Made by a program: the position numbers and the translations under genes
Assembly (NCBI GenBank): GCA_004431415.1
Contig: QPMI01000619.1
Coordinates: forward strand, 57,824-121,823
Direction: 5' to 3'
DNA from: Cyanophora paradoxa CCMP329
Taxonomy: Eukaryota; Plantae; Glaucophyta
DNA: 64,000 bases
Shown here: positions 2,741 through 64,000 of the stretch, one piece after another
Position numbering within the stretch: the stretch's first letter is position 1
Layout: every line of letters begins with the position of its first letter
The notes under the pieces: model-generated
The model's input: only the letters and a program-made list of their open reading frames with translations
The model's database searches: none
Told to the model about the DNA's origin: nothing

Positions 2741-3034
2741 AGGAGAGGTACGCCGGGCCGTTCCCGACTGGCGCCCGTTTCACGTGCGTGTGGTGCAGCC
2801 GCACTAGTACTCGCGCGTCACGCAGTCTGACCCCAAGAGGAGCGAGCGAAGCTAACGCCGGCGCAGCCGCGAGGACCTCGAGAGCACGTGCAACGCGTCG
2901 AACCAGGTGCGACCGCCGAGCGGCCTCCGCCTCTGAATATATGCATCTCCTACCGTCGGACTCTCCGAGTCTCCGAGGGACCGAGACTCGGACCGAGGCT
3001 CGAGGGCCATGGAGTACAGACTGTACAGTAGATG

Positions 3035-14113: not shown

Positions 14114-14869
14114 GCATGCGCGGCAGCCAACGTTGAACGTGTGCGCGCCAAGTCCGAGCGAGCGCGCGGATATCGATATATATATATATATATATATCGA
14201 TCTGGAGACTCTGCAGCAGAGAGGAGGGCGCCGCGGGCGGTGCGCTTAGCGGGAGCCGCACGATCCGCTTACTTAGAGGTGGCGCTGAGGCGCCTCGAGC
14301 GCTCGCTTCTGCGGCGGCGGCGAGCCGACGTGCTGCGCGAACGCGAGTCTGATGCGGGGCACGGGGCGCCAGGAGAAAGCTTTAAAGCGCACATTTAGCC
14401 TCCGTAGAGGTCTCCTGCGCTCCGGAGATCGGCACGGACCGCTCTTCGGATCTAAACGATTTGCATTAGCACACAACAACAACTACGAGGAGTTTCACAT
14501 CGCCCAATTTATCTCGCCGACTAGATAACACTGAGGACCGTCGAGTGCTGTGCTCTGTCTAAATGGTAGGTTTGGTGTTGGGCTAGCTGTATATCTAGCT
14601 ACACTGGAGGTCTGAAATAGGTTTGTAGCTAGCTTTAGCTATAGGTAGCTATTTCTCTGTAGCTAGCGCTAAGTCTGATCTGCAGCTATATATTTTGTAT
14701 ACTAGGGGCCCGGCCGCGTTTTGGCGCGCCGGGGGTGCAAGGGGGGAACCGGGATCTAATGAAAGAGTCGTAGTGGCACGAACATGCACGGGGCAGATGT
14801 AGATCGACCCCGGCCCATGGCCAGTGCGCGCGGCAGGTTGAAGTGTAAAGATAAACACAGATTATGATT

Positions 14870-31029: not shown

Positions 31030-31678
31030 TGGCCATCTGGCACGCTCGGAATAAGAAATTCGAATTCAGAGAGCGTGTACGTATACATATGCGCGTGCAC
31101 GGGAATATTTTGCAGAGCGTATATATGCATGCGCACGCACCGATCGCGGGCTCGACGCGGCGGCGGCGGCGCGGCGGCATGCGAGAATCGAGGTCGCGAT
31201 CGGGAGAGAGATCGAATTATATAAGGCCTAGGGATGACGTACAGGCCCCTGCATGAGGACAATTATTTGAAGGGAGAATTAAGCACATGCACGCGTATAC
31301 GTACGTGGCATCCGGAAGTTGAAGCAATATATAATTTTTTAAAATTCCTAGAATTTTTAATTAAGGGGGGCGCGCCGCGCGGCGCCGGCAGGCCGGAGAT
31401 ATATAAGGAAAGGGAGCTCGAGATTTCAACGCGGCCAAAATAAAAATCGCGTCCCTCTCTGATCGATCCGTCCCTGATCGAGTCACCACCTCTTACTCCC
31501 CCCCGGGCCCGCCGCTGGCAAGACCTTGAAATTGACAGGCGCCCGCGTTGTCTTTGCAGAAAGCCTAGCACTTCAAAATGCGATTCCAAACACCGGTACC
31601 CTACCACTACCTGCGCTACCCCGCCCGGCCCGCTTTCTAAGCTTAAGCTTATAATTACTGTAGCTGGTGCGCAGCGCC

Positions 31679-33292
31679 CTACTCTTTTGGGCGGAGGTTC
31701 ATAACCCACATGGGGATGCGGATGTCCGGGATGAGCCACTGTGGGAGGGCGCGGCCGACGCGCGAGCTCGCGGGGAGGATGAATCGCAGGCTCCGGAGGC
31801 TCGGGGGGAGCCCCCCGTCCTCGTCCCGCACGCCGTACCCCTTCGCGGCCTCCGCCGCCACCTCCGGGCGCCTTATAATTAGAGAGAAGGGGCGAGAAGA
31901 GGGGTACGCGCGCTCGGACCTGGATCGTGCCGGACTTGGACATGACGTTGGGGTCCCCCGCTAGCGCTGCGGGGGGGCCCCGGGGAGCTAAAGCTCGGGG
32001 GGAGAAGAGGGGGGAGGGGAAAGCGGGGGGGTACCGCACCCGCGACGACGCGCCCCGCGAGGTAGAGCGACTCGCCCAGCGAGAGGTCCGGCTGCGGGGG
32101 GCTGAGGCCTCGAGTGCAGGGCCCGGGGGGCCGGGGGCTTCGGGGGGGCACCCGCTGGTCCGCTGGGAGCTCGCTTACCATGGCGACCGTGCGCTCCGTC
32201 CGCACGAGCCCTGAACGCACATGCGCAGCGCGCTCAGAAGGCGGGGGCCGGCCCGGCGCCTCGGGCAAGCCGGCGCACCCGGCCAGAGGCTCAGGCAGGC
32301 GACGCCGTGCGGTCTGAGGTCCTTCGCCATGTCCAGACTCATGCGATCGACGGCCGCCTTCCCTGGGGCGGCCTCAGAGGCGGGCGGGCGGGCGTGCGGG
32401 GGAGCCGCGGGGCGGGAGAGGGGGCGCGCGCCGAGCCCGTACGGCGTGTTAAACGTGTACCGGTTGGCGCCGCCGAAGGAGGAGACGTTGACGATGAGGC
32501 CGGACCCCTCCTGCACCATCCTCGGCGCGGCGATGCAGGCCGCGAGGTAGTTCGCCCGCACGCCTGCGCACGCGGGCCTCTGAGGGGCGCGGCACCGGTC
32601 GGCGCGCCCCGCGCCCCCAGGCCCGGGCCCGCGCGCCGCGCACCTATTTGGACGTTGTCGTCGAAGGTCCTCATGCCGAGCTCCCAGAACTTCCCGCCGC
32701 CGCTCCCGTAGTCCGCGGCGTCGTACTGGAATACGTTGTTGACTAGAATGTCCAAGCGCGGGTTTTCCTGGAAGATCCGCTCTGCGCCCGCTTCAGCGGC
32801 GGCAGCCGCGGACGGGACTCTATAGCTCGAGAGCGCGAACCAAACAGCGCCTTGACCTGGGCGTCTGCGCACGCGGGGCGCTTCAGAAGCGCCTCAAGCA
32901 AGTTCGAAAGAGCGCGCGCCGTCTCCGTGGTCGCACACGACAGCGACAGCCTTGCCGCCCGCTTTCTCAACCAGCTCCGCCGTGTGCTCAAGCGAGCCCT
33001 GCCCCGCGCGCCGCCGCGTATGAGCGTGAGCACATGTAAAAGCGCGTATACGTTCGCACGGGCAAGGCGGCTGTGCCTGGTCCCTTCGCCGTGCGTCCCG
33101 TGATGTAGACCTTCGCTCCCTGCTCGCCGAGGCCGATCGCAATGCCCTTGCCGATACCGCGGCTCGCACCAGTTACGAGGGCAACCTGCGGCCGCGGGCG
33201 GACCGGATCGATTGACCGGGCGGCCGCGCGCTCAGCTGCAGAGCGCGAATTTGAAGTTGAACCTTGCCACTGAGCATTTTGCCTTGCCGCAT
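31679..33292 (-). CDS. DHRS1: Short-chain dehydrogenase/reductase, DHRS1-like
   Basis: Spliced: VALVTGASRGIGKGIAIGLGEQGAKVYITGR, VVCDH, LDILVNN, GLIVNVSSFGG, catalytic YGLGK, AAVDRMSLDMAKDLRPHGVACLSLWPGLVRTE, GES..AGRVV. Confidence 0.88.
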
Positions 33293-44907: not shown

Positions 44908-46503
44908 GCCTAGGCGTAGGCCGCCCCCATATATAGCACCCGCCTCGCAGCGGGGCGCCTTTCTAAAATGTCTTCTCTCCACCCCGCCCCCGCTCCCGGC
45001 CTTGAACATGTGCCAGGCGCCGGCGCCGGCGGGCCCAAGCCCCAGGCCGGGGAGCAGGAGTAGGCGCCCGGGCCGGGCGGCCGCAGCCGCGGCTTTTCGC
45101 CTTGGCGCCTCTGCCATATGTTGTTGTACTTGTAGATTACCCTTCGAATTCTTCTTTCGGATTCGCATAACCTAGTGCGCGTAGTCGGACAGTTCATTCG
45201 TAGCCGCCCCAAGCCCCCCCGCGAGCTCGAGTACATGTATAGGCCGCCGGGTTGCAAGCCCCTGCGTGCAGCGCCGGTCCGGCCCAGTGAAGCATTGGAT
45301 GTTCGCTCTGTTGTTGATCTCCAACTTGTGATTCTTGAAATTTATATGCCTTGAACTTCGCCGAGTCGGAAAAAGAAAACTGTACACCGCTAGCGCTGCC
45401 AGGTCCGCTGGGGCGGGCCCCCAGGCTGCAGGGCCAATGGCCAGGCACTGGCCGCACTGCAGCCTGCAGGCAGGGACCGCTACAGCCTACCGGTAGTTAA
45501 TCTCCAAATTTTAAATCTCTTGAATTGTGATTCTTGAAATTTGTGATTCTTCAAATTATGGTTCTTGAAACTTAAATGCCTCGAAAAAGAGCACTTTCCG
45601 AAGTTCGATATCGATGGGCTGTCGGAGCTCAAGGATCGAACTTGTTTATACGAACTTTCGGAATCTGCAGTCGACGATGCCTTGAAGACTCGATGTCTCA
45701 TTCTCGCGAGCTCGAGGGTCTCCGAGGGGACCATGGCCATCTGTCCCGGAGCGCTAGCTATAGCCGGGCGCCCAGCTGCATGCGCAGGAATCGGTCGCGA
45801 TCGGTGCGTATGCACCCAAGAGCTACCTGTAAGCTATAGAGACTGGGAAACATTAGATCGCGATCGGCGAGTCCCGGAGAGGAGGCGCCTAAGGAAGCCT
45901 TGAAGGCGCCCCGCTAGCGCTGGGACGGGCCCCCGGCCCCCTGCCTGGGCGGCGGCCGCCGGCCCGGCGCCGGGCGAGCCGGCCCGGCGGCGGCGCCGGG
46001 GCCCGGGCCCAGCCGGAGCCGGCTCCCCGGGGCCCGGGCCGGGGCTCAGCGGCTGTTGAGCTGCTGAACTTGTGCAACAATTGTCAACTTGCAAGTGTCA
46101 ATTGCAATTTGTGATTCATGAGCATGAGGATTCAATTTTTTGTGCAGCTGCTTTTTTTAATCGCGCGGATTATAATTTGTACCCCCCGAGAAGCGGAACC
46201 GAGAAGCGGAACCAAGAAGCGGAACGTTTAACTTGCGATCGCGAGATCGAACTTTCGGAAGCGGAACCGAGTCGGCGATATCGATCGAGCCTCGGAGAAC
46301 TTCCGAGAAGTTCGGACCGGCCCGGCGGGCCGGCGGCGGCGGGGCGGCCGGGGCCCCGGGGGGCCGGCGGGCCGGCGGAATCACCGGACTCACCAGCGTC
46401 ACCGTCACGGCGTCGAGCTCGACTTGCCAGTGTTGCCACTGCCAGTGACTCGGTGAGTTGCCACTGACTTGCCAGGCTTTGGCCCGGCGCGCGGCGACGC
46501 CGG

Positions 46504-46572
46504 CGAGTCGCGAGACTCGCGATCGCGATCGCGAGTCGCGAGTCTCGCGACTCGCGAGTCGCGAGTCGCGAC
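46504..46572. repeat. TCGCGA-based palindromic repeat
   Basis: 18-bp inverted arms GAGTCGCGAGACTCGCGA / TCGCGAGTCTCGCGACTC. Confidence 0.8.
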
Positions 46573-46796
46573 TCCACTCGGACCCACTCGCGAGTCATGA
46601 TCACCGCCAACTCACCGGCCCGGCGGAGAAGCGGGGCACTGGCAGAACTTCCGAAGTTCGGAAATGCGGCCGTCGGGCCGACTCGCGTACCGTTACGTAT
46701 ACTACCGTAGTACTGCGGTGATGAACAGCATGCATATGCAAGCTGTGATCGTGAGCTCGAGGCTGTAACTGCCAGGCTGTTGGACACAGCTGCAGC

Positions 46797-47256
46797 TAGG
46801 GCACTGGCCGGGGGGGTCTCGCATTGGCCGGCGGCCCAGCCCAAGCCGCCAAAGTTCGGCCGCTGGCCCGGGGCTGGCCGCCAGCCTCCAGCCAAAACTT
46901 GGCCGGCCAGCTGGCGGCCAGCCTCTTGCTAGATCTCCGGGGCTTGGTCGGCCAGGCTGGCCAGCCGGCCAGCCTTAGAGCCCGCCCTGTTTAAGAATAG
47001 CCGTGATATAAACTCGCATTTCTAACTGGTTTATGACGCCTGTTAATAAAAAGCGCTGTTGATGTTATCAAGTCTCCCCCTCAAGCCCCACCCCTAGCCT
47101 CAAGCCTGCCCCCCAGCCAGTGCCACCGGCCAGCTGGCCGCCCATTCAAGCCGAAAAGTGCTGGCCCGGCTGGCCGACGAATCGGGAGGCTGGGCCAGCC
47201 CAAAAACCTTAAACCTGCCGGCCAGCTGGTCGGCCTGGCCGCCGGCCAGTGCCCTA
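46797..47256. mobile_element. MITE-like element (~460 bp)
   Basis: 15-bp inverted ends TAGGGCACTGGCCGG / CCGGCCAGTGCCCTA, GGCCAGC-type subterminal repeats and an AT-rich core. TSD ambiguous (TA at most). Confidence 0.5.
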
Positions 47257-47464
47257 TAGACACAGCCTCGTCCGACGGTCGAGTCGAACAGTCCGATCGC
47301 GACTGGGACTTCGGAAATTTTGCTGCATCGGCGCGGCGCCGGCAGTTGCCAGTACTTGTGCAATTTTGCAAGCTTAAGCTTACTAGTTCAGGCCCTCATC
47401 GCCTCAAGAGCACGATCGGGAGTCTGGAAACAGTCATTCGGCCCGGCGGGAATTCGGGATCACG

Positions 47465-47562
47465 ATGCAGATGTACGCGTCGCGCCCGCGGGCGATCGTG
47501 CTCGCGCTCCTTCTGGCCGCGGTGGTCTCGCTGACCGTCGCCGCCCTCGGCACCTTCAAGTG
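47465..47562 (+). CDS. First coding exon of a secreted or membrane protein (signal peptide)
   Basis: MQMYASRPRAIVLALLLAAVVSLTVAALGTFK followed by a GTGCGC donor, the motif used by other genes here. Confidence 0.55.
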
Positions 47563-48013
47563 GTGCGCGCACGCGATTCTAGGCCTACACAGCTACTAGG
47601 CCCGCCGGCCACCCGCGGCCAGTTCATCCGAGCATACTTTACCATATACTTGAAGATCGCGATCGTGCCATATTGAATGCATGCGCATCTATATATGCAT
47701 CCGATCACGATTATGATCATGATGGCGTCGATCACGAGTACGCCGCGCGCGGCGCCGGCTCTAGGCCTGATCATGACGCGCCCTATCATAGTAGTATCCG
47801 TGAAACTAAACTCCCCCATAGATCTAGATACCGATAGCTATATAGAGCTTCGTGCTACCGATAGATACCGATAGCTACCGATCCCCCTCGAACTCCACCA
47901 CGTGCCCTGCCCGCCCCCGCCCCCCTCCGCGGCCAGTTCATCCGATCATATGCATACACGCGCATACTTTGACATTTACGTACGCGTATACTTGGAGATC
48001 GTGCCATATATGC

Positions 48014-48311
48014 TGTTTTAGGAGGTTTTATACGTCCCAGTAGACCTTAGCAACCTTCCCGTAGCGTACCAGCAGCAGGCGAGCAGGCTGTCACGTTGCA
48101 AGAGAAAGCTGCTAATCACAGACTACTGTGTACCCTAGGACACGGCTACCGGAAAGTATCAAGCTAGAGTCAGAAAAAGTAGCTAGGGTCGCATCTTCGT
48201 ACAGGGGTACAGTGACTCAGGAAATCGCGAGAAGCCGCGGGTCAAGTCACGGTACTACTGCGAACGAAGTGCAAACGAAGCACTAACGGCTAGGAAACCC
48301 TATCGGCAACA
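48014..48311 (-). repeat. Candidate 3' LTR
   Basis: TGTT...AACA ends, ~210 bp downstream of the integrase stop, preceded on the element strand by purine-rich GAGGACCTGGAGAGC. Second LTR not in the window, so unconfirmed. Confidence 0.45.
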
Positions 48312-48519
48312 GCTCTCCAGGTCCTCACAGACGCTTCCACGCGGCTGGATCAGAAGAGATGTAGAGCTGCGCATTTGGTTGAGGGCAAACCAGGCAGCAG
48401 TGATCAGCCGCTGACCCAGCGCCAAGAGAGAATTCCCGAAACTCGCAAGCCACATCCCAGTGAAGGGCACGTCATCGACAACGGAAGTGAATCCGGTAAA
48501 CCGCAGTACGGGCTGTGAT

Positions 48520-50025
48520 TCAAGACTCGTCATCCGTCGTGTCATCATCGGAAAGTGAATCGGGATCAACGGCAGGTGGCGGAGGCACGGGGACCTCATG
48601 ATCGGGCGGCACAGGCACGGGGGCCTTGCGAGGGCGACCGGCTTTGCGGGGAGCGAGAACATTGGCAGGACGCTCGTGAAAAGCGATCATGAGATCAACG
48701 TGCATGAGAACCTCGCGCGAGCGATACACCAGTGAAGTGTCATCGCCTCGGACAGTGTACAAAAGACCGTGAGAGTGAACCTCAGTGACAGTGTAAGGGC
48801 CAGTCCAACCATTGCGAGGCCCAGTGCGCTTGACGTTACTGGTCTTCGCGCTGATAATCCAGCACAACACTTTGTCACCAGGCTTGAAAACACGATGCGG
48901 CTCACGGCCAGTGCCATAGCGAAGCAACTTCTTGTTGTAAAGTTTGCGGTGTTCTCGGACGGCAGAGATTTGGTCGCGGGCGGCTCGAGCGACCGACAAA
49001 GCGTAATCGTAGAGAGAAACGGGATCTTCGTGAGGTTCGCGCAGGGTGAGGTCGAGACGAAGATCGCCAGGCAACATCAATTCTCGTCCAAAGTGCAGAG
49101 CGGCGGGTGAAAAACCAGTGGCAGCGTGAATCGTGGTCCGGAGAGCGAAGAGCACGCGATAATGATAGAAAGGCCAATGGGAATTGTCCTCCCCGTTCTC
49201 ATCGCAAAGAGCATACACCAAGCGCTTGTAAATGCCACCAAGCCGCTCAGCACCGCCGTTCGTGGACTGGTGGGACGTGGGAGCGTAAATCAACCGAGTA
49301 CCCTGGCGAGTCCAGAATTTGCCCCAGAGACTAGTAGGCGTGAAGACCTTGGCGTTATCCGTGAGATACCGCTTGCAAGGGCCGTGATTCGCGTACACAG
49401 TTTGTGCAGCCCACTCACAGGCACGACCATCAGCCTCCGTCAGCATCAAAATCTCAGGGTACTTGGTAAAAGCGTCGACGTCAATGTGCACAAGTGTGAA
49501 ACGGTGAAGTCGACCGTTCTCAGAGGGCGCCATAGGGAAGTGATCGGCTTGACGCAAGTCGCCAGGATGCTCAGACTCGATCACAGTGAATTGTGACTTC
49601 GGCTTCTTGTGAGCCTTGGCAAACTGACAGTGTCGGCACGTCTTCACGTAGCGATGGACAGCAGTCGTCATGCCCGGCCACCAAAACCGTGAGGCGATGC
49701 GCCGAGCAACAATGGGGGCACCACGGTGAGCCCAGTCATCGTGGTAAGCGTGAACAATCTTCTCCCGCCACTCTGGGGGTACAACGATCTGAGGCCGCAT
49801 AGTGGGGAGCAAGGGCAACCGCAGTACGGTATCTTGCTCATCGATCGTGTACTGAGTAGCTTCACGAGCGAAGCGATCGCGTGCAGACTTGCAGAGAATG
49901 CAGCTCCCAAGCACCTCCGGGTCACGTTCACCAGCAGTGTAGTGGGAGTGACAGCGCGCCAGGTTCTCCTTCTCGCGAAGAAGTGCGAACACCATCTGGC
50001 AAAGAGGGTCACGAGCCTGAGCCAT
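48520..50025 (-). CDS. Retrotransposon integrase
   Basis: HHCC (HDDWAH...CRHC), DDE core (QADHF, LTDNA, NGGAER), TGFSPAALHFGR, GPY/F motif WTGPYTV. Confidence 0.95.
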   Translation of the reverse strand: MAQARDPLCQMVFALLREKENLARCHSHYTAGERDPEVLGSCILCKSARDRFAREATQYTIDEQDTVLRLPLLPTMRPQIVVPPEWREKIVHAYHDDWAHRGAPIVARRIASRFWWPGMTTAVHRYVKTCRHCQFAKAHKKPKSQFTVIESEHPGDLRQADHFPMAPSENGRLHRFTLVHIDVDAFTKYPEILMLTEADGRACEWAAQTVYANHGPCKRYLTDNAKVFTPTSLWGKFWTRQGTRLIYAPTSHQSTNGGAERLGGIYKRLVYALCDENGEDNSHWPFYHYRVLFALRTTIHAATGFSPAALHFGRELMLPGDLRLDLTLREPHEDPVSLYDYALSVARAARDQISAVREHRKLYNKKLLRYGTGREPHRVFKPGDKVLCWIISAKTSNVKRTGPRNGWTGPYTVTEVHSHGLLYTVRGDDTSLVYRSREVLMHVDLMIAFHERPANVLAPRKAGRPRKAPVPVPPDHEVPVPPPPAVDPDSLSDDDTTDDES

Positions 50026-51519
50026 GATGACCGCGGTCCCATCGGAAACAAGTTCACGGATCGTCGGTGGCGGAGGAACGTCAACGAGGGGCGGGGGCCC
50101 TCGCTCCAGGTGTCCATGACAACGGTGCCACGCGGCAAGCGAACGTGTGTCGGCTCATTCTGGGCGCCTTCACCTTCGTCCAGCGGGGCGATAGCGCTGC
50201 TAGAAGTGGGATCAGGTCGCGGACGACCGAGGTCACGTTCTTGCTGCAGGAAGTGCATGTACTCTTCCTCGTCAGCAACGTCGAGATGCGACGGGGGCGC
50301 AATGGCATATCGAGACTGCCGTGAATTCTTGCCCTTGGGAGGCTTCACCCGCGGTACGGGGCATGCCTTGGCGTTCAGCGCCTTGCGGGATTGTCGCCGT
50401 CTGCGCCGCTCCTCCGGGGTTCGGTTCCGAACAGAGGGCAGGGGTACGAGCGCGTCGATCTCAGACGGGGTACGGCCCATCTCTGCCAGTTGGCGTCGCC
50501 GTTCGAGCGTCGTCGCCGTCCTCTCCCGCGAGGCTTCGTGCAGATCTCGGGCCGCACGCGAACGTCTGTCGCGATCACTGGCGAGGCGGTCAGCGTAGTC
50601 CTTTTCAAGCCGTCGCTGGTATTGGCGCGGGACACTCCAAGCCGTGCTCCGTCTTGAGTTCGACGTTCCGTCGGACGCCGAGGACTGCGAAGATTGGCCG
50701 TCATCCGTGAGGGCCCGGCGTCGTGCCCGTTCCACAGAGTCGCGTAGCGTGCGGTCAGCTGCTTGACGATCGAAGCCTCGCAAAGATGGACGGGGTAGCG
50801 ACGGCTCGCTCTCCTCGTCTGTACCCCCTCCCCCTCCTTCCGGTGACTGAGACCGAGGCCTCCGGGCCGAGCTCTCCCGTCCTCGAGCTTGAAGCCCGTC
50901 AGCGGAGCTCTCCTGTCCTCGAACTTGAAGTCGGCGGCGGCGACCCTCGGCCGGTAGCCAGGCCGCGCCGTCGAGTGTATGCTCGAGGTTCGTCACCCCG
51001 CGGCGTCGCCGTGCAGGAGGGGCCGTCGCGCCCGCCTCGTCTGCCGCTGCGGCCGGTGCAGGCGTGTCAACTTCCATGGGTACGACGTCGGGGCAGAGAG
51101 GGCGCCGTTCTCGTGGAGCCGTTCCAGCGTGATCTGGGACTCCACGTCTTCCAGGCCGCCGTTCTCGACGATGTCACGCACTCGCTGAGTGTCGGGCGTC
51201 AACGACCTTGGACGTCGCCGTGAAGTCTGAGGGTCGTCGCGGTCTCGGCGCGGTGGCGCCGGGGCAAGGTGCTCGGGTCGCGTGGTGGCGCGGCGTCTAT
51301 CCCCAGTAGGGATCCACGCCGGCCCGTCCAGAGTATGTTGCAGGGCCGAGGAGGTGCGGTGGATGGCGACGCGGTAGAGTTCGCGTGGATCGTCGTAGTC
51401 TCCCGCATCGGGCACACCGAACCCGTGAGCGCCGTCTGGTATCGAAGTCGTGATGTCAGTGCCGTCAGCGCCGCCAGGCTTGTACACTGCGTGCGTCTCC
51501 GCAAGGCGAGAGCAGCAGT

Positions 51520-52140
51520 CCGCAACGACGTTCGACCGCCCGTTGCGGTACTCGATAGTGTAGTTGTAGTGGTTGAGGGCGATGGCCGCGCGCCAAGCGT
51601 CTTGTTGTTCGCCAGCTCCTGTGTCTTCAACCATTGCAACGCCGAATGATCCGTGCGGATCGTGAACGGGTGGCCGCAGACGAAGTAGTGGTGCCAGACC
51701 TTAACCGCCCAGAGTACCGCAATGCATTCGCCCTCCGTTGGTGATTGGTACTTGCGCTCCATGTTTGTCAGAGTACGACTGATGAATGCGATCGGGCGCT
51801 CGCGGCCGTCCTTGTCCTCCTGCATGAGCACCGCTCCCATGGCCCGTTTGCTCCAGTCCGTGTAAATGATGAACGGCTTCGTGAAGTCGGGCAGCATCAA
51901 CACAATGTCCTCGCACATCGCCTTCTTGAGGTCGTCCAACGCAGCGAGAGCCTCGTCATTCCACACCAAGTTGAGCCGGTCGGCTCGTAGTGCGTCCGTG
52001 AGGAGGTCTCGCAGGGAAAGTTCCCGTCGCGCGTAACTCTGTACGAAGCGCCGGTAGAAGCCCGTGAGGCCGAGGAAACTGCGGAGTTGCTCGACAGTCT
52101 GGAGTTCGTTCGCCGTGATCTTGGAGATGATCTCAACCTT
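51520..52140 (-). CDS. Retrotransposon connection + RNase H (frameshifted in this sequence)
   Basis: LRSFLGLTGFYRRFV, FIIYTDWS, EGECIAVLWAV, TDHSALQWL, IEYRNGRSNVVADCCSR. Confidence 0.93.
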
Positions 52141-53060
52141 CTTGGGTCCATGCGAATGCCGTCGCTGCTGACACGGAATCCGAGCAGCTCGACTTCCCGC
52201 ACCATGAAACGACATTTGCTGGGCTTGAGTTTGAGGTTACCGCGGTCGATCGCAGCGAAGAAGGCCTCCAGGTCGAGAAGGTGTTGTTTGACGTTCGGCG
52301 AGTGGACCGTGAGGTCATCGACGTACGCCACGACGCAGGTGGACAAAAGGTTGCCCAAAATTGACGTCACGGCTCGACAGAACGCCGCTGGGCCGTTCGT
52401 GATACCAAAAGGGGTCACTTTCCACCTGTACATTCCCCAGGGGACGATGAATGTCGTCAGGTCACGTGACTCCTCGTCGAGTTCCAACTGCCAGAAACCC
52501 GACGTTGCGTCGCCAGTCGAGAACGTGGACGCACCCTGTAGGCGCTCCAATTGGTCCTCAATGCGTGGCAACGGGAAGACATCACGTTCCGTGAGGGAAT
52601 TGAGCTTCCTGTAGTCGACGCAGAATCGCATCGTGCCATCCTTCTTCGGTGCCAGCACCACGGGGCTGCCGAAACCAGCTTGCGAAGGCTCGATGAGACC
52701 GTCGCGTAGCAGCTTCTCGATTTCCGCCTTCGCAGCCTTCTCCGCAGGCGGAGAGAGCCGGCGAGGGACGGTGTACAGCGGGAGGTGCTTGGCGGGGACG
52801 CCGGGCAGAAGTCGGATGCTGTGCTTGTACTTCAGGAGCTCGCGTGGATTGATGTTCTGGGCGAAGCAGTGCTGGCGTTGCGTGAGAAGGTTCTGGAGTT
52901 GAGTGCGATCCTCGGGAAGGGCGTCGGGGTTCGACTCCGATGGTTTCAACAGGGCGTCCACCATCGCCTTGATGGTCTCGGGCGATGGCTTTGTAGGAGG
53001 CGCAGTGTCACTCGACGGGGGCTCCATTCGAGCGTCGGCATTGACGGACGCGATGGGCAC
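52140..53060 (-). CDS. Ty3/Gypsy reverse transcriptase
   Basis: SPVVLAPKKDGTMRFCVDYRKLN, FPLPRIE, SGFWQ, PFGITNGPAAF, YVDD, KCRF, LLGF. Confidence 0.97.
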
Positions 53061-53543
53061 CGTGGGCCGACTGCGGGGCCAACCAGCATCGGCTCGGAGT
53101 CGAAGCGGGCGAAGTGAGGCTCGAAGAAACTGGCCAGCTCCATGAGCTCCTTGTCGTTGAAGTGATCGCCGGTTCGAGCAGTGTAAGGGGTGACGACACG
53201 TGCGACGTACGACATGAGACGCTCGCTGGCCTCGTGGGATAGCGGGATGTCGGCAGCAGCATCGACGGAGCCAACATGCGCCGCCTCGCCCTCCTTGCAG
53301 TTGGGTTCGGGCGGTCGTCGGTGGTAGACCTCCGGGTAGAGGCGTCGGGCTCGGGAGATGTAGCGCCGTGGTTGCGAGCGTCGGGGTACGACAACAGGCT
53401 TGAAGTTCTCATAGATTTGCGCGGCTACGGAAGAGATCGGGAATGTCAGTTGTTGTTGAGGTGTCCAGGAGCTGTAACACCCCTTGGGGTAGGTCTCGAC
53501 ATTCTCGTGTGGACGGAATTCGGACTCCGGCCAAGTCCCGAAT

Positions 53544-54557
53544 TCAGTCTCCGCAATCACAGTTCCGGCTCGCAGGCGGACAGGCCGCCTGTGAGGGTTG
53601 CAGATCTGCACGAAAAACGTGCCGTGTGCTGGGTTGCGGTGAATTTGGTATGGCACCAAGAATTCGACTTCGTCGCTCCGTCGAAGCCGTCGTCGTCGAG
53701 GAGGAGTGGTGGCGGAGTGAGGAGGACTTCCGGTGCGCCGAGAGTCGTGTTCGAAGTCGTTTGTGGCATGTAACATCGAACGAGCGATTCACCCGGCCGT
53801 ACAGTGATGTCCTTCGCCAATCGGACCAGAACGCCGCCGTCGTGCTGGCCCGCAGCCGAAAAGGGACGTGGAATCGTTCGCCATCCGAGGAGTCAGGCGA
53901 CGTGATCGTCATTCCCCAATTTGCTGGGTCGAGCACGATGTGAGCGTTGAGCGCCACCAGCGTTGTGAGGCCGAGTAGCATTGGAGTGTTGCCCATGAGA
54001 CCAGGCGCGACGACGAGGACCTTCCGCGGAATTGTGACCGGACCAACCTTAATTGCAATGAATGCGATGCGCGCATAGGCAGTCATGTCCGTTCCAAAGC
54101 CGGTGAGGTGCACGCGCGGAGCGTTGCTGTAGCGAAGGCCTGGCAGTTTGTCGGCGATACTGCCGTCGAGTACGTCCGCAGCGGCTCCTGTATCCACCAA
54201 TGCCTTGGTGAGGAGGTATTGAAGGACTTGTCGTCGGTGATCGATAGCGGCGATGTGCAAGTTGACGCAGATTCGGCCGTCGTTGATGCGCTCTCTGAGC
54301 GTGCGGTTCGTGTCCGTCATTCGCGCAATGGGGTGTGGTACTGACGGGCCGCCGTCGCCGAAGAGGGGAACGTCAAGGGGGTCCTCGACGTCGTCAAATC
54401 CCAACATGCGTGCCGCGCAGACGCGAAGCGAGGCGAGGTAGCTCTGCTCATACGGTGTGCACGGTGTCGAACCGGAGATGACGCTGGCTGGCGGGAGCGG
54501 TGCCGTCCGCTTGAGGCGAGGTCGCTTCCGCGTGGTTGTCCGCCTGTGCACGTTCAT
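53544..54557 (-). CDS. Retropepsin-type aspartic protease
   Basis: ALVDTGAAADVL active site and MLLGLTTL motif. Confidence 0.85.
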   Translation of the reverse strand: MNVHRRTTTRKRPRLKRTAPLPPASVISGSTPCTPYEQSYLASLRVCAARMLGFDDVEDPLDVPLFGDGGPSVPHPIARMTDTNRTLRERINDGRICVNLHIAAIDHRRQVLQYLLTKALVDTGAAADVLDGSIADKLPGLRYSNAPRVHLTGFGTDMTAYARIAFIAIKVGPVTIPRKVLVVAPGLMGNTPMLLGLTTLVALNAHIVLDPANWGMTITSPDSSDGERFHVPFRLRASTTAAFWSDWRRTSLYGRVNRSFDVTCHKRLRTRLSAHRKSSSLRHHSSSTTTASTERRSRILGAIPNSPQPSTRHVFRADLQPSQAACPPASRNCDCGD

Positions 54558-57500
54558 GAGGACGTCCGTCGCGGCGAATGGGCGTGCCCTGCAGGGAGCT
54601 GCCGACAGACGCAGCGGGGCCGGTGATTGCGCATTGTGGCTGAAAAGTATCCGACGCCAAGGATGGGCTTGCAGTCGGCGTTTGCGAGCTTGTTGAGGTG
54701 GCGGTTGCTGGGCCAGCCATAGTGAATCTCGTTGATCGCGTCAACTTCGGTCCCCGCTGCGCCATCCCGTCGTTCAGCCGGCCGGTAGCCAGGCTCTCCG
54801 GGGGATCGGAACGGGATGGCTTCGCGGTGGCGCGAGAGAGACGCCCGGAGATATTTGACGAGTTGGGCCAAGCGTGGCGGAGGCGCGTGTCGCGTTGGAG
54901 TACGTGCCGCTCGTAGAAACGTGTCCGTTGAGCGTCATGACTACGGAAGTCATTGTGGAGGACCACGTCCCACGCCGCGAGGCCGATTGAATTGAGGATG
55001 AAGGCCGCCCGAGTGAACAAGGCGCGAGTGAAAGCGAGGTCGGCTGACAGCCCTGAGAGGTTGTGAAATCCACCGAAAGTTCTCGATCTCGTGGAGCGTC
55101 TCCAGGATTGCGTGGGCGTTGAGTTGGTGAGACCGCTGAAGCGGCGACCAGTCGTACAAGTGATAACTGGCAGCGAATTCAGGGTCCTCGAAGGCACGGT
55201 GTCGCGCGGACGTGATCCGCTCGTAGTCCGGTCCCCGTCCAGAGTAGAGGAGCCAGCAGCCCATCGTGAGATCCGTCGACGTCCTGGGATTAGTGAGGTC
55301 GTTGTATGCGATCGTGTACGTGTGCTGCCGTGTGAGCGGTCCAAGGAGGCCGTGGGGGGCGAACGCGGACGACTGCACGCGCGAGGCTAGGCTCGGCGTC
55401 CCGGCCGACGGGGTCTCCGATGGAGCTACGGACTCGGCGGTGGAGCCACCACTGTCCGAGCTGGAGTCGTCGCCGTCAGAGGTTCCCGTCGTCTCGGTCC
55501 CCGTAGGACTACGACGCGGAGGCCTGTTACTGCCAGATGGCTTGAAGACAACACCCTGGATGTGACCGAAGCGTGCCAGTCCCGTCGGCTCGTTGGTGCG
55601 CAGATCCTTGAAGTCGGTCGACCAGACGACGAAGGGTCGGACAAAGGGCTTGCGCGCAATCCAGGGTTCCGACGAATGTACTCGTCCGTGCCCACGAGCT
55701 TGATCTTGCCGTCGAGGCGCGGTCCCAAATGTACGCGCGCGACTCCTCTGCCTTCGTCGTAGTGATGTAGTTCATGATGTTAGTGAAGCGCGTGCGGCCT
55801 TCGTACGGGTCGACAGGCGCGCCGTGGGGGCCGTGACCAATGTAAATGTGGGGATCTGACGAAGGAGGCTGTCGTTGTCCGGATCGCCCAGGGAGTGACG
55901 CAGGGGGAGGACGTCGACGATCTGTACCGCCCGGTAGGCTTCGCGGCTAGTGAACGTGATGGGCCGCCTCGTCGCCGCGTCGACGGTGGCGTGATTGTAA
56001 ACGAATTGTTCCAACCAACCGTGGAGTAGCGCCCGCGCCTGCGGTTCGCGACTGAAGATGGCGGCGCCGAATTCATTGTAGAATGGATCGAATGTGAAGT
56101 TGCCATATTCGGCGTGACGGAATTGCTCGTGTATGTCGGCGTATCGCTGTTCGAAATCCATAATAGCGTTGCGCACTGCGCTCGCGTTGACGTCATAGAC
56201 ACTGGGACGATGCGGGTGTGACGGATCGTTCGTGGGATCGAAGTCAGCGCCCCGGACTTGGGCGTTGAGTGCGTTGATGACTCCATCCGGGAGTCGGAAT
56301 GCTACGGGCCAGCAGTGGTTTCGATCCATGTCGACATCTTCGCGAGCCGCCGGGGGTGTCTCGTGCTTGATCTGGACCGCCAACCAGTCGTTGGTTGCCT
56401 TGTGCAGTAGGGATTCGAAGGCTGTGATTAAATGTGCCGGGTCGACGCGTTCGCAGTCAGGGTACTCGACCTCGTACCATTTGTCGAGTTTGGCACTGCG
56501 CGCCACTTCGCCTGAAGCCGTGAAGCGGAAGTGCAGCTCATCCTCGTGGCTACGAACGTAGTCGATGATGATGTTCCCGAGTTCCCCCGGTAGGGGCTCG
56601 AGGAAGAACGACAAGGCACCGTGCAGCTTGACTGCCGCCGCCAGGTACGCTGCGATTCCGTACACCCAAGTGTGTACCGAAAGCGGGAACCCAGGACCTG
56701 GTGGACGACGGGGGGCGTTGCAGGCGCGGTGCCCGTGGGCCCGCGACGACGCAGAGACACGACGACGCCCCCAGGGCCAGTGTAGTCATTGACGGACACC
56801 GGGAAGTACTTGGGGTCGGGCCGCACGGGTGCGGCCCGCCGCCTCGTTTGGGGTTTCCTCGTGCCCGCGATGATCTGCTGCCAGGTGTTCCGGTTGTTCG
56901 CGTCGAAGATAGTGATGTGCGAGCGGTTCTGGATCGTGTTGGGGGCACCGCGGCTGGGTCCGGCCGGTGCAACGTGCGTGAATCGGACGATTCGAGGGCC
57001 GCACAGGTCAGCATTGGCCGGCGTAAGAGTCATGGGCGGCGCGTTGAGGTCGTCGGGCATGGCAATCTCGTAGAAGCATCGTTCGACATCTTGACGTGAA
57101 GCGGAGTCACGGAGGTGCGCGTGGTTGTCCTCGTCGTAGATGCAGTCGAAGTAGTCGGCATACTTGTTGGCCGGGTGGAACTCGTCGGCGGCCGTGATCA
57201 GGAACGATCGGAAGGGCAGGCCCGCGCGGTTGTGCTGGCTGAGTTCGCCATGGCCGGGAGCACCGGCGCGGTACGGGTAGGTGCCGGGGCCGACGCCGTA
57301 GCGTAGGACACGACTGAGTGCTCGCGAGAAGTTCGACCAGCGTACGTGCATCTTCATGAGGAATGGGCGCATGTACGGGACGCGCCGGAGAAATGCCTCG
57401 AGACCAGAGTCGCCGAGTAGCACGTATGGCATGTGGACCTCACCTAGGACGTGCATGTACTTCTTTGTCGTGGTGGCGGGATGAACTGGGGGTGGGTCCC

Positions 57501-60500
57501 GAGTCGGGATTCCCTCCAGCTCTTCGACCGGCGGCGGCTCTGGGAGCTCCTCCGGTCTGTGCCCGTCCTCCACAGTGAGCTCCTCGGTCAGATCAGCCGT
57601 CTGTCCGAACGGGGCTGGGCCTCCGAGGATGTGAGCCGCGACGGCGAAGATGTGGGGCGCGTGTCGCCCATGTTCCTGGATCGTTTTGCAGTACGCTGTG
57701 GCCAGGAAGTCCGTGTTCGTGAAGAGAAGCGGTGTCATGAAGATGTGATAGGAGGTATCCCGTCCCGGATCAGTATCCAGAGGTAGGAAGTCACCTCCAG
57801 CTCGCGTCTCCTCGGGGCTGTATGTGCGCATGCCGTACGGGAGTGGGGGGCGAGGATTGTGGAGACGGATTGGGTACCAGTCGTTGATCGTTTGGGCGAA
57901 TAATTCCCCGTTGATGTGATTGTTGCGCCGTCCAAAACCCGCATAGAACGTGTCGCGCTCGTTCTCCGTCGAATCAGGTCGCGGTTCCCGTCGGACCATC
58001 ACGCCGCTCAGATCCGGCCACACTCCGTGCTGGTAGCCAGCGCCGTCGACGACCGTGAAGCCCTTCGCCCATTCCTCGTTGAGGAAGGCCCAGAAATAGA
58101 CGTCAGGAATGTCAGCGTTCTCCGAGAGTAGCACCTCCTTGAAAGGAACAGTGTGGAGTTCGCTCAAAATTCTGGAGATGATGGAGTCGACCTCCTCGGG
58201 AGTGAGCCGGGCGGCCTTGCGCTCCTTCTTCTGCAACTTCTCGTCATTCGGTCGCTTCTCGCGGGGCGCTTGCGCTCTGTTCCGTAGACCATAGCGCGGG
58301 CACGAAGCCCGAAGTACGTGTTGGAGTTCCAGAAAGTGTCCTTGCTCATGTCGTCGACAAGTCCAACGAGGGAATCCCAGTCAGGAACGCGAGGCAAGAT
58401 GTCGATGCCGTCCGACGTCCACTGTGTCAGGTATCCGTACTCGTCAACGTCGCGCTCAGGGGGCCGTGGGACCGGGACGGCAAGAGGGTCGGTGACGGGT
58501 ACCATCGGACTGGGGAGGACAGGGAGTAGGTGATCGCGGTAGCGCGGGTAGAGCATGCAGTAGAACAGATTCAATCGATGCTCGGCGTCCAGGAGGAAGG
58601 CCCGTGTTACCGCCAAGCGCTGGGTGGTCGTAGCCTTGCTAAGTGCAGTGTCGAGTCGAGCGACGAGGCCGAAAGCAAGCTTGCTCGCAGTACGAGTGCT
58701 TGACTCCGTCTCGAGCTTGTACGCGCGACGCATGGCCTCGAGAGTCAGCTGGAGGATATGGAGCGCCACGCAGTTTTGCACGCCAGGAGCGCCGCCTCTT
58801 CAGGGTGCACCATTATGTAACGGTCAGAGTTGTAATAGAGCTCGACAGCTGGCTCGGGCTGCTTCGGGTGAAGACGGGGGCGTGCAGTCGCGATTCGAGA
58901 CGGATCGGTTTGCCCTTCTTGGCGAGTTGACGCTTGTGCATGAACGTAGTGATTGACATCGCGACAACGGTGGTGTCATGTAGCTCGGCGAGCCTTGCCA
59001 GCGCAGTCGTCTCCGTGACAGACGCGGCGACGACGTTCGTGAAATTTGAGGGAGGACGCCGGAGCGGTGACGGGACAGTCCGTGCCGAAGACAGTGGTGT
59101 AGGTCGGACTCGCTGACGGGGGGCGTGCGCAGACGATGGACATCGCGTGCCGCGACCACTGCTAACTGGCTGTTCAGCCGGATCTCCTCCGCGAGCTCGG
59201 CGGTCGCCCGCTGGTTCGTAGCCGGGTTCGCGTCGGATTTCGGGTTGAAACGGGACGTGTAGTAACGGCGCAGGAAGTTGCCGGGCCCTCGACGTCGGCT
59301 GTGATGTTGACGAGGCGGAGTACGTTCTCGACTTGCTCGGTGAGCATTGACAGCAACGGCGCGTGACTCGTCGGCCATGGACGGTCGGAGCTCGGTGCTG
59401 GGTCACGAACGTCGTAGAGGTGAGCAAATCGCTATCCCCGTAGCGGTCGCGCGTCTCGTCCCACTTGTAATGGTCGAAGTATGCAGCGATGTCCCACGCC
59501 CGCGCCAGGGCCGTCGAACGCATCGACAAGGCGATGTCGGGCGGCGGTGAACCGTGTCGAAGCGTAGACAGATAGATGTCGTCAGGTCCTGTGAGCGGGG
59601 CCGTGAACTTGACAGTTTGGACCAGTTGCCTGATTGTTGCAAGGCGCGTCGCCGTGTTCGTGATCTTGTCGAAGTTCAAGAACCGTTCATCGCTCTCCGT
59701 CATCTCCACGTCGTAGTGCAGCGTCCGGAGATTGCGGGCAAGGTTGACAGCCACCTGAAGGATGCACGGTACGACTGGAGTCTTGGACTGGTGTACAAGA
59801 GTGAACTCTGTCGGTGTCAAACCAAACAGCTCCAGCATCTCTGGCCGTCCGAGGACATCGGCGAGCGGGTCGTTCGGGTGAGGCCACGTGGTCGCCGTCT
59901 CCCCAGGCGCGAAGGGCTGAGCCCGCGCGAGGCGCATGATGACGTGGATGACGGAGCGGAATTCGGTCAGATGTTGAAGGAGGTAGTGAGCCTGGTCACT
60001 CGGGCGAGTACCCAGCAACGGTTGCCCAGTAGGCGTGTTGCTGCGGGCAGCTGCGAGGTGCATGCAGCTCGTGAGCTCGCTGGCGGCGAAGAGGGTCGGC
60101 GTCTCAGGGTCTTGCGCCAATCCGTCGTCGTCGTTGTGACCATGAAGCGTCGCGGCGTGTCCAGGTACGCACGCAGCTGGTTGTGCACCACGGGCTTGAG
60201 GCGAAGGATCGTCCAGGCGTGGCGGTGTCCAAGGTCGGCGGCCACGTCCTTGATCTCGGGCTCCGAGTCGCTGGACGTGTCTTCGTCGGTGTCAGGAGGA
60301 CTGTCACGGTCGTCGTGAGGGCTCGGCAAGGTCGGCGTGTCGACGATGATCCCCCTCGAAACGCGCGGGTCGCCCATGGGCACGTCCTCGTCCTCTCAGT
60401 GCCCGACGAGTCGGCAGTCGTCGAGTCAGGCATCGACGCGTCGGTCGGTGCAGTGTAGTCGGGGTGAAGTGACGGGATCGGCAGCATCGGGGTTGGGCCG

Positions 60501-63500
60501 GGCTCTGCGGCGGGGCCGCCGTCACAGTCGTGGCCGGGGCTGGCGGGGCGTCGGACGGGGCCAGTAGCTCAGGCGCAGGCGACGGGGCCGTCGAGACCGC
60601 AGCCACGGCCGTGGGGGACGGGACGCTGTGCGGGTCGTCAGCGAGGTCGCCATCGCCGGTGCGATGGGCGAAGCATCTCGAGCGGCCGTCGACGAGACCG
60701 GCGTCTCGAGAGCGGGCGTCGGGCCACCGGAGTCGTTGTCACGGGTGCAACGGGCTGGGCGTCCGGAGTCGTCGTCGCGGGTGCAACGGGCTGGGCGTCC
60801 GGAGTGTCCGTCGACGAGGCCGTCACCTCGGCGCAGGGGGTGGGTCGTTCCGCGGGCCGGGGCTCCGGGGCGTCGGTCGGCGGTGTCACCGGTGCCGTTG
60901 GGCACGTCATGTCGTCGTCGTGGTAGTGAGGGTTGCCCGGGGTCTGGGGCCGGCTGGTATGAATCGGGAGCGCGCGGCCGCGGCCCTGACCGTTCCCCCG
61001 TGCCTCGCCGATTGGCGCGGTGGAGCCTGTGCTGCCGCAGTACGGCGACGGGCGTCCATGGTGCGGCCACGAGCAATACCACCGATTGCAGCCTGCAAGT
61101 AGGGGGCTTGCGCCGCGGCCTGCACCGGGTCCTCTCCCTTGGCAGCTTCGCGTCGAGGCGAGCCTGCAGTTCACGTGCGAGCTGTTCGTCGGCCAGCAGC
61201 TGCGCGTGCTTGTCGGGCGGAGTGGTCGGGGACGGCGTTCCAGGCGTGCGGCGACGAAGGATGTCTGTCAACACGTTGTGGACTTCGAGTACCTCGCCGA
61301 AAACTGCGTCGGGTCCCGAAGTCGCGCGTTCTCGGCGGCGAGTCGCAAGTACTCCATGTCGACGTCGTTGGTTCGGAGAGTGAGATGCGGCTTAATCTTG
61401 TCCCGCTGTCGAGCCGGCCAGTCGTGTAGAACGGCAGCGACGTAAATCGACGCCAACTTGCGGCTCACTCCCCCAGCTGCAGCGACCGTGGTCTCAGGCA
61501 CCGGGTAGGGCGGAAGATCAGTTGGTGTCGGGCCGAGGCGCGTGTTCGGCTCATCGACGGGTGCATTAACGCGTGAGCATGGTAGAACGCCGGTGCCGAC
61601 AAGCAGACGGGAAGCGACGCGTTCACAGTCGTTCGCGCGAGTCGGGACGTGTCCTGCCCAGAGGTGTTGACAACTCCCGGGGCGAGAATGATTGGCCGAG
61701 TGCCTATCGGTCCAGTACTCGCGTCGCGAACGCCAGGCCGGAGGGTGCTGGCACGGACGGTGAAGGGGCTGACGTCGACGTTAAGGAAGATGTCAGCGAC
61801 CCGAGGCCAGTCGTCGTTCCCCGTCAAAGACGTCGTTCCCTGTGGGGTGATATCCATTAACAGACCGATAATCCGCAGGAAGAGCGTCTTCATTTCCATC
61901 GTCACTCCGTACAGAGCGTCGAGCGTGATGTCCGCCGGTGCATGTCAGGTCGCAGAGTACTCGGGTACGGCGTGCGCTGGCGTGAGGTGGCGACGGTACG
62001 GGCAATTGCGGACGAACTCCATGTACGGCGGCGTTGTGCAGAGGCGCAGTGCTCCTGAAGCTCGACGTTAGTCATTGTCACCGTGTTGCCCGTGGTCGAG
62101 TCGATGTACTCGTAGTAGCGGTGCGCAATGCTGATCACTGATGCACGGAGCCGGTGGTTCACGATGACGGGTGAGCCATCGGGGCCGATGCTGCACGTGT
62201 GGCACGGTGCAGGCATGTCGACTGGCGACAGGAAGAGAAGAATTTGCTGTCCCCCAACACTGACCATGATCTTCTCGACCGTGCGAGAGGCGAAGACGCG
62301 GTCTCCACCCTCGCGCTCATACCTCCCCGCTGCCCTGGTGGCGACGAGCGATGAGCGTGATCGAGTCTTCCGCAATGTCCATCAGCATCTCGCGCAACTT
62401 CCGTTGCGGTTGATGGGGTCATTGTCAGCCCTGTCCTCCGACGCCTTGGGCCGCAGTACGGCGGGCGCGGGTGGAGTGGGCGTGGTCGGCGGGACGATTG
62501 GCGTCTTGTCCTCAGGGGCGAGGCCCTCTGCCGTCGCGACAGAGCTGGGTCCGGCGACGGGGTCGGTCGGAGCGTTTGCCGCGACGAAACGAGCGTAGGC
62601 GTCAGCAGCCTTTGCCGAAGTCGCGTCAGGGCCTGAGGCGAACCGTAGCTCACCCTCGCGCTCGAGAATGTAGACGAGAAGTAGGATCGTAGACTCGACG
62701 TCGTAGCCACGGAGGTACGTGCGGAGTGTGCTCTCAACGTAATTGACAGCGGCCGTTCGTCGGTTGGGGCGCATGAATGTTGGGCTGCGGTTCTGCGCGT
62801 CGGTGAAGGACGTCTTGACACGGTTCAGGAGGGACTCGACGACAGCAGCTCCTGGGAGCGTCAGCGTTGTCGTAGGTGCAGGCGGCGCGTCGGTTGTGTC
62901 CATGGCGCCGTCGGTGAAAGTGAAGACACGACGGGCGCACAGAGCGTTGACGATTGCCTGAACCGTAGTGTCAACATCGAATGCCTCGAGCTCCTTACGC
63001 AGTACACTCGTGACGTGGTTGGCCGCAGCCTGCCGCGTGCGAGGCGGCGGGCGCCCGTGTTCGTGATGGCCATCGCTGCCATTTCAACCAAGTGTAACAG
63101 CTGCTCGCCCTCAGCGCCCCGGTAGGGCCGGCGAAGCTGCTCGTTGGTGTTCGAGATGTTAGTGTTAATTGCCGCGATAGTCGTCGTCTCACGGGCGATT
63201 GCGATCCACGTGCGCAACGTTGTCACGTCATCCTCAGTGGCCGTGTCTGCAATGATGCGTGTGACGGCCGCATTCAGACGCTTGTGCTCACTGTGGCCTT
63301 TCGGGTTGATGAGCGGGCGGGTCGCCAGCAAGTGCCAATGCGGGTGGCTGTGGTGAGCGTGAGTGCCGTCAGCGCACGGGATGCCGGGGTTCACGTCGAG
63401 CGCCGGCGGGATCGGGAACCGCCCGTTCTTCGCGTGTCCGGAGATGTCGCGGGCGATCACAAAGAACTCCATCTCCCTGGTCGGGTCACGAACGGGGTGC

Positions 63501-64000
63501 GACGTAGGGAGGCTTTCAAGCGCAGCGATGAGCGCGGAGTGAGCAGTACGAAGTCCGTCATTGGCGCGTCACGACGGTGTGCCGAGGGAATGGGGCGGGC
63601 AACAAGGGTACCATTCTCCTGGCGGCCGACGACATGGGGGTGGCAGTCAGCACACGTCTCGTTGGCGAAAGACAGGTCCCGACGGCGAGGCATGTGCGCA
63701 TCCTCCGTGAATACCGCGGTACGGTAATTGGAGGCCTGCGTGAAGACGGGGTACATGTTGTCGTGGGGCTTGGGGAAGCGGTGCGCGCGCGCCTCCTCCG
63801 AGTCGCCTTCCGCATCGATAGCGTTGCGGACGCGAGCCCAGCAGACACCGGGGCCCTTCGGCTCGAGGTACGTCGTGAGCATCTGGAGGGCGGGGCAGTA
63901 AAGGATGGTACGCGCGTGGATCTGCGCTGGTCGCTCGAAGGGATGCCATCACGAAGCCAGTCAGTGCACTGGATGCCGTCGACGTGCATGCGGTTGTTAA
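54554..64000 (-). CDS. Very long upstream polyprotein region of unknown function (chain of overlapping ORFs)
   Basis: Overlapping or abutting same-strand ORFs (63457-63882, 62861-63472, 62382-62903, 61902-62375, 61465-61905, 58813-60120, 58164-58781, 56428-58236, 55772-56665, 54950-55378, 54554-54871) with protein-like composition and no intergenic gaps. Confidence 0.7.
60727..60808. repeat. 36-bp coding tandem repeat (TTTPDAQPVAP)
   Basis: CCGGAGTCGT...GGGTGCAACGGGCTGGGCGT repeated. Confidence 0.8.

Follow-up and report, generated by a model that had tools for sequence, protein, structure and literature searches.

A giant Ty3/Gypsy retrotransposon with a long coding insert upstream of the protease in Cyanophora paradoxa

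Introduction

In the available portions of the papers cited here, Ty3/Gypsy retrotransposons with long terminal repeats (LTRs) share the domain order GAG-PROT-RT-RH-INT in REXdb, and the extra open reading frames (ORFs) of plant members are separate ones, located 5′ or 3′ of the polyprotein (PMC6317226). Plant Ogre/Tat elements reach 16–25 kb and carry extra coding sequence of unknown function, most of their size being due to LTRs of 1.9–6.5 kb and one or two separate ORFs (PMC6431247, PMC6317226). The closest described layout is that of the planarian element Burro/GYPSM1 (4,873–5,140 aa), whose ORF1 encodes a Gag with knuckles, long in-frame extra domains including an envelope, and then the protease; this giant in-frame expansion between Gag and protease has been described as peculiar to Burro (PMC6431247). 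Here we analysed a stretch of 64,000 nucleotides (the window) from the glaucophyte Cyanophora paradoxa CCMP329 (contig QPMI01000619.1, positions 57,824 to 121,823), whose minus strand carries a giant Ty3/Gypsy LTR retrotransposon.

This element resembles Burro/GYPSM1 in its likely N-terminal CCHC Gag, in the thousands of in-frame residues before the protease and in its very large size. It differs in that its host is an alga, its frames are offset by −1 after the protease, its predicted Gag-Pol is longer (about 6,150 aa), its LTR measures 298 bp and its copies number about 15. Burro/GYPSM1 also has a dUTPase-like region between protease and reverse transcriptase (RT), to which the Cyanophora element shows only a presumed resemblance. 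The MATH, BIR, ankyrin, BCL2, SUMO-like and envelope domains of Burro ORF1 (PMC6431247, in part) were not detected: the insert gave no Pfam, NCBIfam or PDB match to any of them, a search of the HHpred class not being included. The element is therefore Burro-like in layout and is not classed as Burro, the comparison being one of layout with no Burro RT sequence in it. The original prediction had been of an undescribed giant lineage with novel accessory domains; the size and the unrecognised domains stand, but the layout has a precedent in Burro.

Unlike the separate extra ORFs of plant Ty3/Gypsy elements, the extra coding sequence of the Cyanophora element lies inside ORF1, and in contrast to Ogre nearly all of its length is one coding frame. 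Two Ogre/Tat traits were not found, since the LTR is only 298 bp and the RNase H–integrase linker gave no match to a second RNase H; nor was a chromodomain match found after the integrase, where chromoviruses such as Chlamyvir have one. The offset after the protease recalls the −1 shifts of retroviruses, for example HTLV-1 pro-pol, where a canonical heptamer likewise lies between protease and polymerase (PMC5009743, in part), but here there is a single shift and the protease is in the Gag frame. Yeast Ty3 differs again in using a +1 shift at the end of gag.

The C. paradoxa genome paper gives figures of 1.77% for LTRs and 11.5% for unknown repeats (PMC6704402). The available portion of its text does not describe the element and gave no hits for 'gypsy', and its repeat library may hold the element unnamed. 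Our literature search, with Repbase, Dfam, GyDB and supplements outside it, found no description of the element. As far as we found in the literature, the giant Gag-protease in-frame layout has otherwise been described only in flatworms.

Results

Domain order, LTR and size of the element

Pfam searches revealed protease, RT, RNase H and integrase zinc finger in this order, which is the PR-RT-RH-IN order of Ty3/Gypsy. The integrase core resembled the integrase chains of foamy virus and Ty3 (E 5e-11 to 1e-9), in agreement with the complete set that had been predicted. The best solved-structure match of the RT was the Ty3 RT (E 2e-27, PDB sequence search). The features of this part are as follows.

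53958..54206, minus strand: aspartic protease (LVDTGA), PF13975 above cut-off, E 1e-6; last known domain of ORF1
53400..53859, minus strand: domain that opens the pol frame, with 41% identity in family B and no Pfam match
52170..52649, minus strand: RT core, PF00078, E 3e-32
51604..51963, minus strand: RNase H, PF17917/PF17919, E 8e-32
50067..51590, minus strand: RNase H–integrase linker, about 510 codons, in frame, partly low complexity
48520..50064, minus strand: integrase with H2C2 zinc finger (PF17921, E 5e-16), DDE core and a C-terminal motif that we take to be the one named GPY; pol stop at 48522
48312..48326, minus strand: purine-rich stretch before the LTR (11 of 15 purines), a weak polypurine-tract candidate from its sequence only
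48014..48311, minus strand: 3′ LTR, 298 bp, TGTT...AACA, from sequence, contig branching and depth

The first pol-frame domain presumably resembles a degenerate dUTPase-like domain between protease and RT, without support from Pfam. Long linkers between RNase H and integrase were also found in the sister families. A motif is repeated in the linker of the element, LQHTLDGPAW (51330–51300) and LEHTLDGAAW (50985–50950), and family D repeats a similar LGPAW. In Pfam searches neither the integrase ORF, with E values up to 1, nor the sister-family models matched a chromodomain.

The 298-bp segment 48311–48014 occurs only once in the window. Short-read contigs fork at either end of it, which is what an LTR should show, and the depth at 48234 was about twice the internal depth (1866 against 994, and 500 against 230), which fits two LTRs per element. 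The element has no internal DNA repeats at E 1e-3. No primer-binding site (PBS) was readable in the consensus of the loose-end contigs, whose lines mix contigs. Neither an LTR nor a nested insertion, either of which would have spoken against a single giant element, is present between 54.5 and 64 kb.

We estimate the element at 19 kb or more, the part outside the window being based on gene models. An earlier estimate of 17.4 kb, which placed the 5′ LTR at a contig end 1,075 nt beyond the window edge, was dropped when this point was found to match a tandem repeat after the knuckles.

Assembly errors and the open frames

A best-path frame search of the raw sequence required about 34 shifts, of which 30 were single-base losses. 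We then compared the window with four short-read runs aligned over 46001–64000 and with homologues, which were EukProt gene models of C. paradoxa. The 12 displayed indel rows from short-read contigs, out of 52, each restored one letter. The gene models of other copies pass the upstream breaks with 1–3 extra bases, and at one place with one base fewer. From both sources together we obtained 44 one-base indels in the element, and with these the net length and the number of gaps came out exactly right for 10 of the 11 long contigs, while the remaining one was off by one indel at its last base. Apart from one, the many frame breaks are thus assembly errors and not features of the element.

When missing bases were marked N at each inferred indel, two long open frames were read. 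The pol frame has 1,781 codons, from 53859 to 48522, and the other frame is ORF1.

53557..63998, minus strand: in-window part of ORF1, 3,492 stop-free codons from 63998 to the stop at 53559, open at the window edge

Other copies read across the junctions of ORF1. From the protease as far as position 64000, the codon bias learned from pol persists, in a single frame at any one point, with a weaker signal in the low-complexity stretch at about 61.0–60.3 kb. This continuity supports the same-strand coding that had been proposed from the protease to the window edge. The claim of more than 3,000 codons upstream of pol was likewise borne out, the protease active site lying 3,279 codons in from the edge. 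As for the single-base shifts that were thought to join overlapping ORFs, they are assembly errors except for the one at about 53860, which is real (see below).

N-terminus of ORF1 beyond the window

In four gene models on four contigs (P0007, P0011, P0013 and P0014), the same N-terminus runs into sequence located at the window edge or close to it. It adds about 975 residues to ORF1 in these copies, the window beginning at residue 975 of P0007. A helical region was found in this N-terminus ahead of the insert, and two stretches of CCHC knuckles lie at P0007 515–549 (zf-CCHC, 24.7 bits against a cut-off of 20.8). ORF1 would thus be about 4,470 aa long, about 3,700 aa of it separating the knuckles from the protease, and Gag-Pol about 6,150 aa, figures that depend on gene models outside the window.

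No capsid motif or knuckle was found in the stretch from the protease to the edge, just as first reported, but a putative Gag with knuckles lies beyond 64000. The extra coding sequence is therefore not placed upstream of Gag or in its stead, but between Gag and protease.

Frame change between the protease and pol

ORF1 and pol are offset by −1 just after the protease, at the following features.

53859..53865, minus strand: slippery heptamer C CCT TTT, putative −1 programmed frameshift from ORF1 to pol, from gap arithmetic, phase and family B
53822..53852, minus strand: candidate stimulatory hairpin 6–7 nt after the heptamer, in 4 of 4 folds

The contig spanning 48282–56343 has 13 gaps, and all 13 were accounted for elsewhere. 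Since none is left for about 53860, the frame change there is real and not an error. C CCT TTT is in phase, has the X XXY YYZ form of −1 slippery heptamers (PMC5009743, in part), and is the only canonical heptamer in 54640–53560. In family B, VPF is kept at the shift site and the −1 relation is the same, for 49 residues of two models fit one DNA whereas shuffles reach at most 8. Family C has IPF where families A and B have VPF, a hint of the same shift site.

These results suggest that programmed −1 ribosomal frameshifting probably joins ORF1 to pol, so that, in place of the single polyprotein of about 5,000 aa or more first envisaged, there would be two ORFs with a −1 shift after the protease. 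Some doubt is raised by three points. The result at 53860 is one of gap arithmetic, with only the 12 of 52 indel rows displayed; an in-phase heptamer is expected by chance in 7% of overlaps of this size; and the stability of the hairpin does not exceed that of shuffled sequences (z 0.27 to −0.93). The last point would also favour bridging of the offset by splicing, or an inactivating mutation common to all copies, and predicted introns in the gene models do span the offset. But these introns disagree among models (187, 816 and 831 nt), the contigs that look like RNA (a guessed label) are continuous and unspliced across the site, family B shares the offset, and the heptamer is canonical and in phase. 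We therefore regard splicing or mutation as improbable.

The insert between the knuckles and the protease

The in-window part of the insert contains the following regions.

61000..63998, minus strand: the insert's N-terminal half, where a CxxC...CxxC cluster lies near 62200–62030; no relative found outside family A
60270..61000, minus strand: Pro/Thr/Ala-rich low-complexity spacer with a 36-nt tandem repeat
58415..59590, minus strand: block 1, about 390 aa, with 30% identity to P0180
55770..57765, minus strand: block 2, about 650 aa, conserved at 22% identity in family B and at about 30% in P0181 and P0180
54840..55340, minus strand: block 3, a domain of about 170 aa that precedes the protease and has about 33% identity in family B (iE 4e-29); no match among solved structures

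The C-terminal half of the insert is conserved. It is colinear with family B, at 22–36% identity, for 1,150 aa or more ahead of the protease, and the three blocks total about 1,200 aa. Their composition is globular, and the insert has about 1% cysteine. For the N-terminal half, no relative was found among 11 models of other families, which is a weak blank as the matching part of family B is not among them.

When a 1,124-aa stretch of the insert was searched with HMMER against 1.84 billion representatives, we found 11 hits, nine at 79–100% identity and two relatives at about 30%. Pfam searches of 16 upstream ORF pieces (55.4–64 kb; 54.5–55.8 kb) gave no match at cut-off, the only one below it being EAD10 (22.5 bits against 24.1). 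Of 15 insert pieces searched against PHROGs only two gave a hit (E 0.02–0.04); NCBIfam, with nine proteins, and the PDB sequence search gave none. Two regions had no usable match in the ESM Atlas, a result that indicates neither absence nor novelty. No locus was found in three scans of viral contigs (one scan noted a confirmed stretch without any locus), and metagenome contigs and phages gave no matches. A match to an independent virus or host gene, which would have told against the original prediction, was thus looked for in these collections and not found. AlphaFold2 folded the conserved half with a pLDDT of only 29 from a four-sequence alignment.

No Walker A motif was found in the insert, nor were envelope features, there being one borderline hydrophobic segment (KD 1.62) and no clear transmembrane segment. 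By eye, HPHWHLL (about 63340) and DEQLARELQ (about 61190) presumably resemble an HUH motif and a ubiquitin-binding MIU, respectively; neither likeness was supported by any search.

Related families in C. paradoxa

In a tree of 107 sequences of RT and RNase H (RT-RH), from which none was dropped, the 17 with Cyanophora model names (12 of them confirmed by look-up) formed one clade with support 1.0. The tree has no named reference lineages and the clade is thus unplaced. The best RT-RH identity outside Cyanophora was 45%, while family B is 76–77% identical to the element (family A). In family C (P0156) the knuckle is at 560 and the protease near 3,000, giving an insert of about 2,450 aa; in family D (P0168) they are at 719 and 1,520, with an insert of about 800 aa. 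By sequence, then, the related Cyanophora families are one RT clade with inserts of 800–2,450 aa. The gene models P0156, P0157, P0166 and P0168 belong to other families of this clade and have inserts unrelated to that of family A.

Copy number, age and transcription

Models of the family were found on 16 contigs, of which one bears the window's own breaks and is not independent and another (P0147) was not aligned. There are about 15 near-identical copies in C. paradoxa. The depth in run X1 was about 990 over pol, 750–1,050 over the insert and 61–67 on flank contigs; this ratio fits about 15 copies, though depth does not translate strictly into copy number. When copies were compared, five pairs had 1–6 isolated substitutions per 1,044–2,509 otherwise identical residues. 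The element is apparently very young and looks intact.

Most copies carry the upstream region, whose absence from other copies would have contradicted the original prediction, but P0146 skips about 7 kb of it. Contigs of run X15 also end at the breakpoint of this deletion, about 57025, with a depth of 29.5 on the pol side and 12.3 upstream. This is a weak hint that the deletion copy is transcribed more; contig depth cannot rank expression. One run X1 contig (depth 75) skips 104 nt at 58761–58866, a small deletion in one copy. In one further copy, with a depth of 66 of about 830, position 63055 is linked with a repeat at 46327 (46327–46575), probably through a secondary insertion into that copy.

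The whole element (28 of 30 bins) was covered in two runs that we guessed to be RNA, but the flank at 46.6–47.8 kb was not. Two other 'RNA?' runs with the same species label had none of the element's words. Subject to the guessed label, the element appears to be transcribed.

Other features in the window

A DUF6570 match (E 4e-8) lies at 14689–15525 on the minus strand; we take DUF6570 to be part of Helitron-type proteins, so that this may be a Helitron fragment. Positions 5–2200 and 21057–23500 form a segmental duplication of 84–98% identity, presumably like an adenylate/guanylate cyclase gene, although two pieces tried had no Pfam match. Host genes include an F-box-like gene at 30258–31262 (below cut-off) and a short-chain dehydrogenase at 32178–32792, both on the minus strand. 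Near-identical direct repeats (5568–5867/9958–10257 and 9261–9560/10449–10748) and a perfect 80-nt inverted repeat with its arms 3 kb apart (5917–5996/9051–9130) likely belong to other mobile elements.

Discussion

The results are best explained by a young, multi-copy Ty3/Gypsy element of at least 19 kb, whose ORF1 encodes Gag, insert and protease and whose pol is likely reached by a −1 shift; we consider this explanation probable. The architecture itself, with a likely Gag, unassigned domains and the protease in ORF1 and a separate pol frame, is held with still greater confidence. One LTR-driven RNA would be translated mostly into Gag-insert-protease, and a minority of ribosomes would slip at C CCU UUU to give the product of about 6,150 aa. 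The protease may then release from these products the capsid, the nucleocapsid, a number of insert proteins and the enzymes.

Several observations weigh against this explanation. The LTR is known from its 3′ copy alone, the 5′ LTR lies outside the window, and neither PBS nor target-site duplication was seen. The capsid is inferred, as the N-terminus had no Pfam gag match; the AlphaFold2 model containing Gag is all-helical with a pLDDT of 37 and no fold match (Foldseek TM-scores of 0.10 or less were discarded), and family D shows weak similarity in gag (E 0.34). The inserts of families C and D have no similarity to that of family A, and neither function nor fold could be assigned to any insert domain by Pfam, PHROGs, NCBIfam, PDB, ESM Atlas or AlphaFold2. 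In addition, depth falls by 10–20% over the upstream half, P0146 passes from a point shortly before the window edge straight to about 57025 and so is without about 7 kb of insert, and the RNA label of runs X15–X20 is a guess.

Because the insert lies upstream of the shift, Gag and the insert proteins would be produced in a 1:1 ratio, and this level fits an accessory that is structural or host-binding better than it fits an enzyme. We tentatively suggest that the insert provides an abundant, non-catalytic, particle-associated or host-binding accessory that aids the packaging of a long RNA or the escape from silencing. Repeats are methylated in Cyanophora (PMC12344493, in part), which makes counter-silencing a candidate role.

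The insert might instead be mostly expanded spacer, in a lineage that inflates its linkers and in which only an open frame to the protease is constrained. The RNase H–integrase linker is also about 500 aa and partly of low complexity, parts of the insert are rich in Pro, Thr and Ala, the inserts vary in length and are unrelated among families A, C, D and E, and one copy has lost 7 kb. However, about 1,200 aa in three blocks of globular composition are colinear at 22–36% across three to four diverged sequences, and unconstrained sequence would be expected to be unalignable at such an RT distance. Expanded spacer is thus an unlikely account of the insert.

Less likely still, the insert could be a module for cell exit or entry, the counterpart of the in-frame envelope of Burro, which would allow viral spread between algal cells. 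It occupies the same position as the env-like region of Burro (PMC6431247, in part) and would be made at Gag levels, and the copies are very young. But a single borderline hydrophobic segment and about 1% cysteine do not suit this role, and no match to a fusion protein or capsid was found by Pfam, PHROGs or PDB sequence search.

LTR elements do acquire ORFs (PMC6431247, in part) and methylated genes of viral origin occur in Cyanophora (PMC12344493, in part), but that the insert is a recently fused host or DNA-virus gene or second element is very improbable and largely refuted, since all 11 HMMER matches are the family itself (nine) or the two 30%-identical relatives, viral contigs, metagenomes and phages have no match, there are no introns or internal termini, and the same place of the insert in family B shows that it is old. 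An old captured gene is the form in which this rival would stand.

It is also conceivable, though doubtful, that Cyanophora has had its own radiation of giant Ty3/Gypsy elements which reached the Burro design independently. Such elements would make folds without relatives at Gag stoichiometry, use them as a non-envelope exit/entry or anti-silencing module, and have a Gag-Pol of about 6,150 aa that exceeds Burro's 4,873–5,140 aa.

The element thus holds about 1,200 residues of conserved protein without a known family, which are currently buried in the proteome as broken gene models with invented introns. A second case of this layout, in an early-branching alga and with other content and a frameshift, suggests that the position between Gag and protease is a general slot for accessory modules. 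With an apparently intact, very young and seemingly transcribed element in an alga that can be cultured axenically, the role of such inserts could be tested, as could the limits that packaging sets on retrotransposon size.

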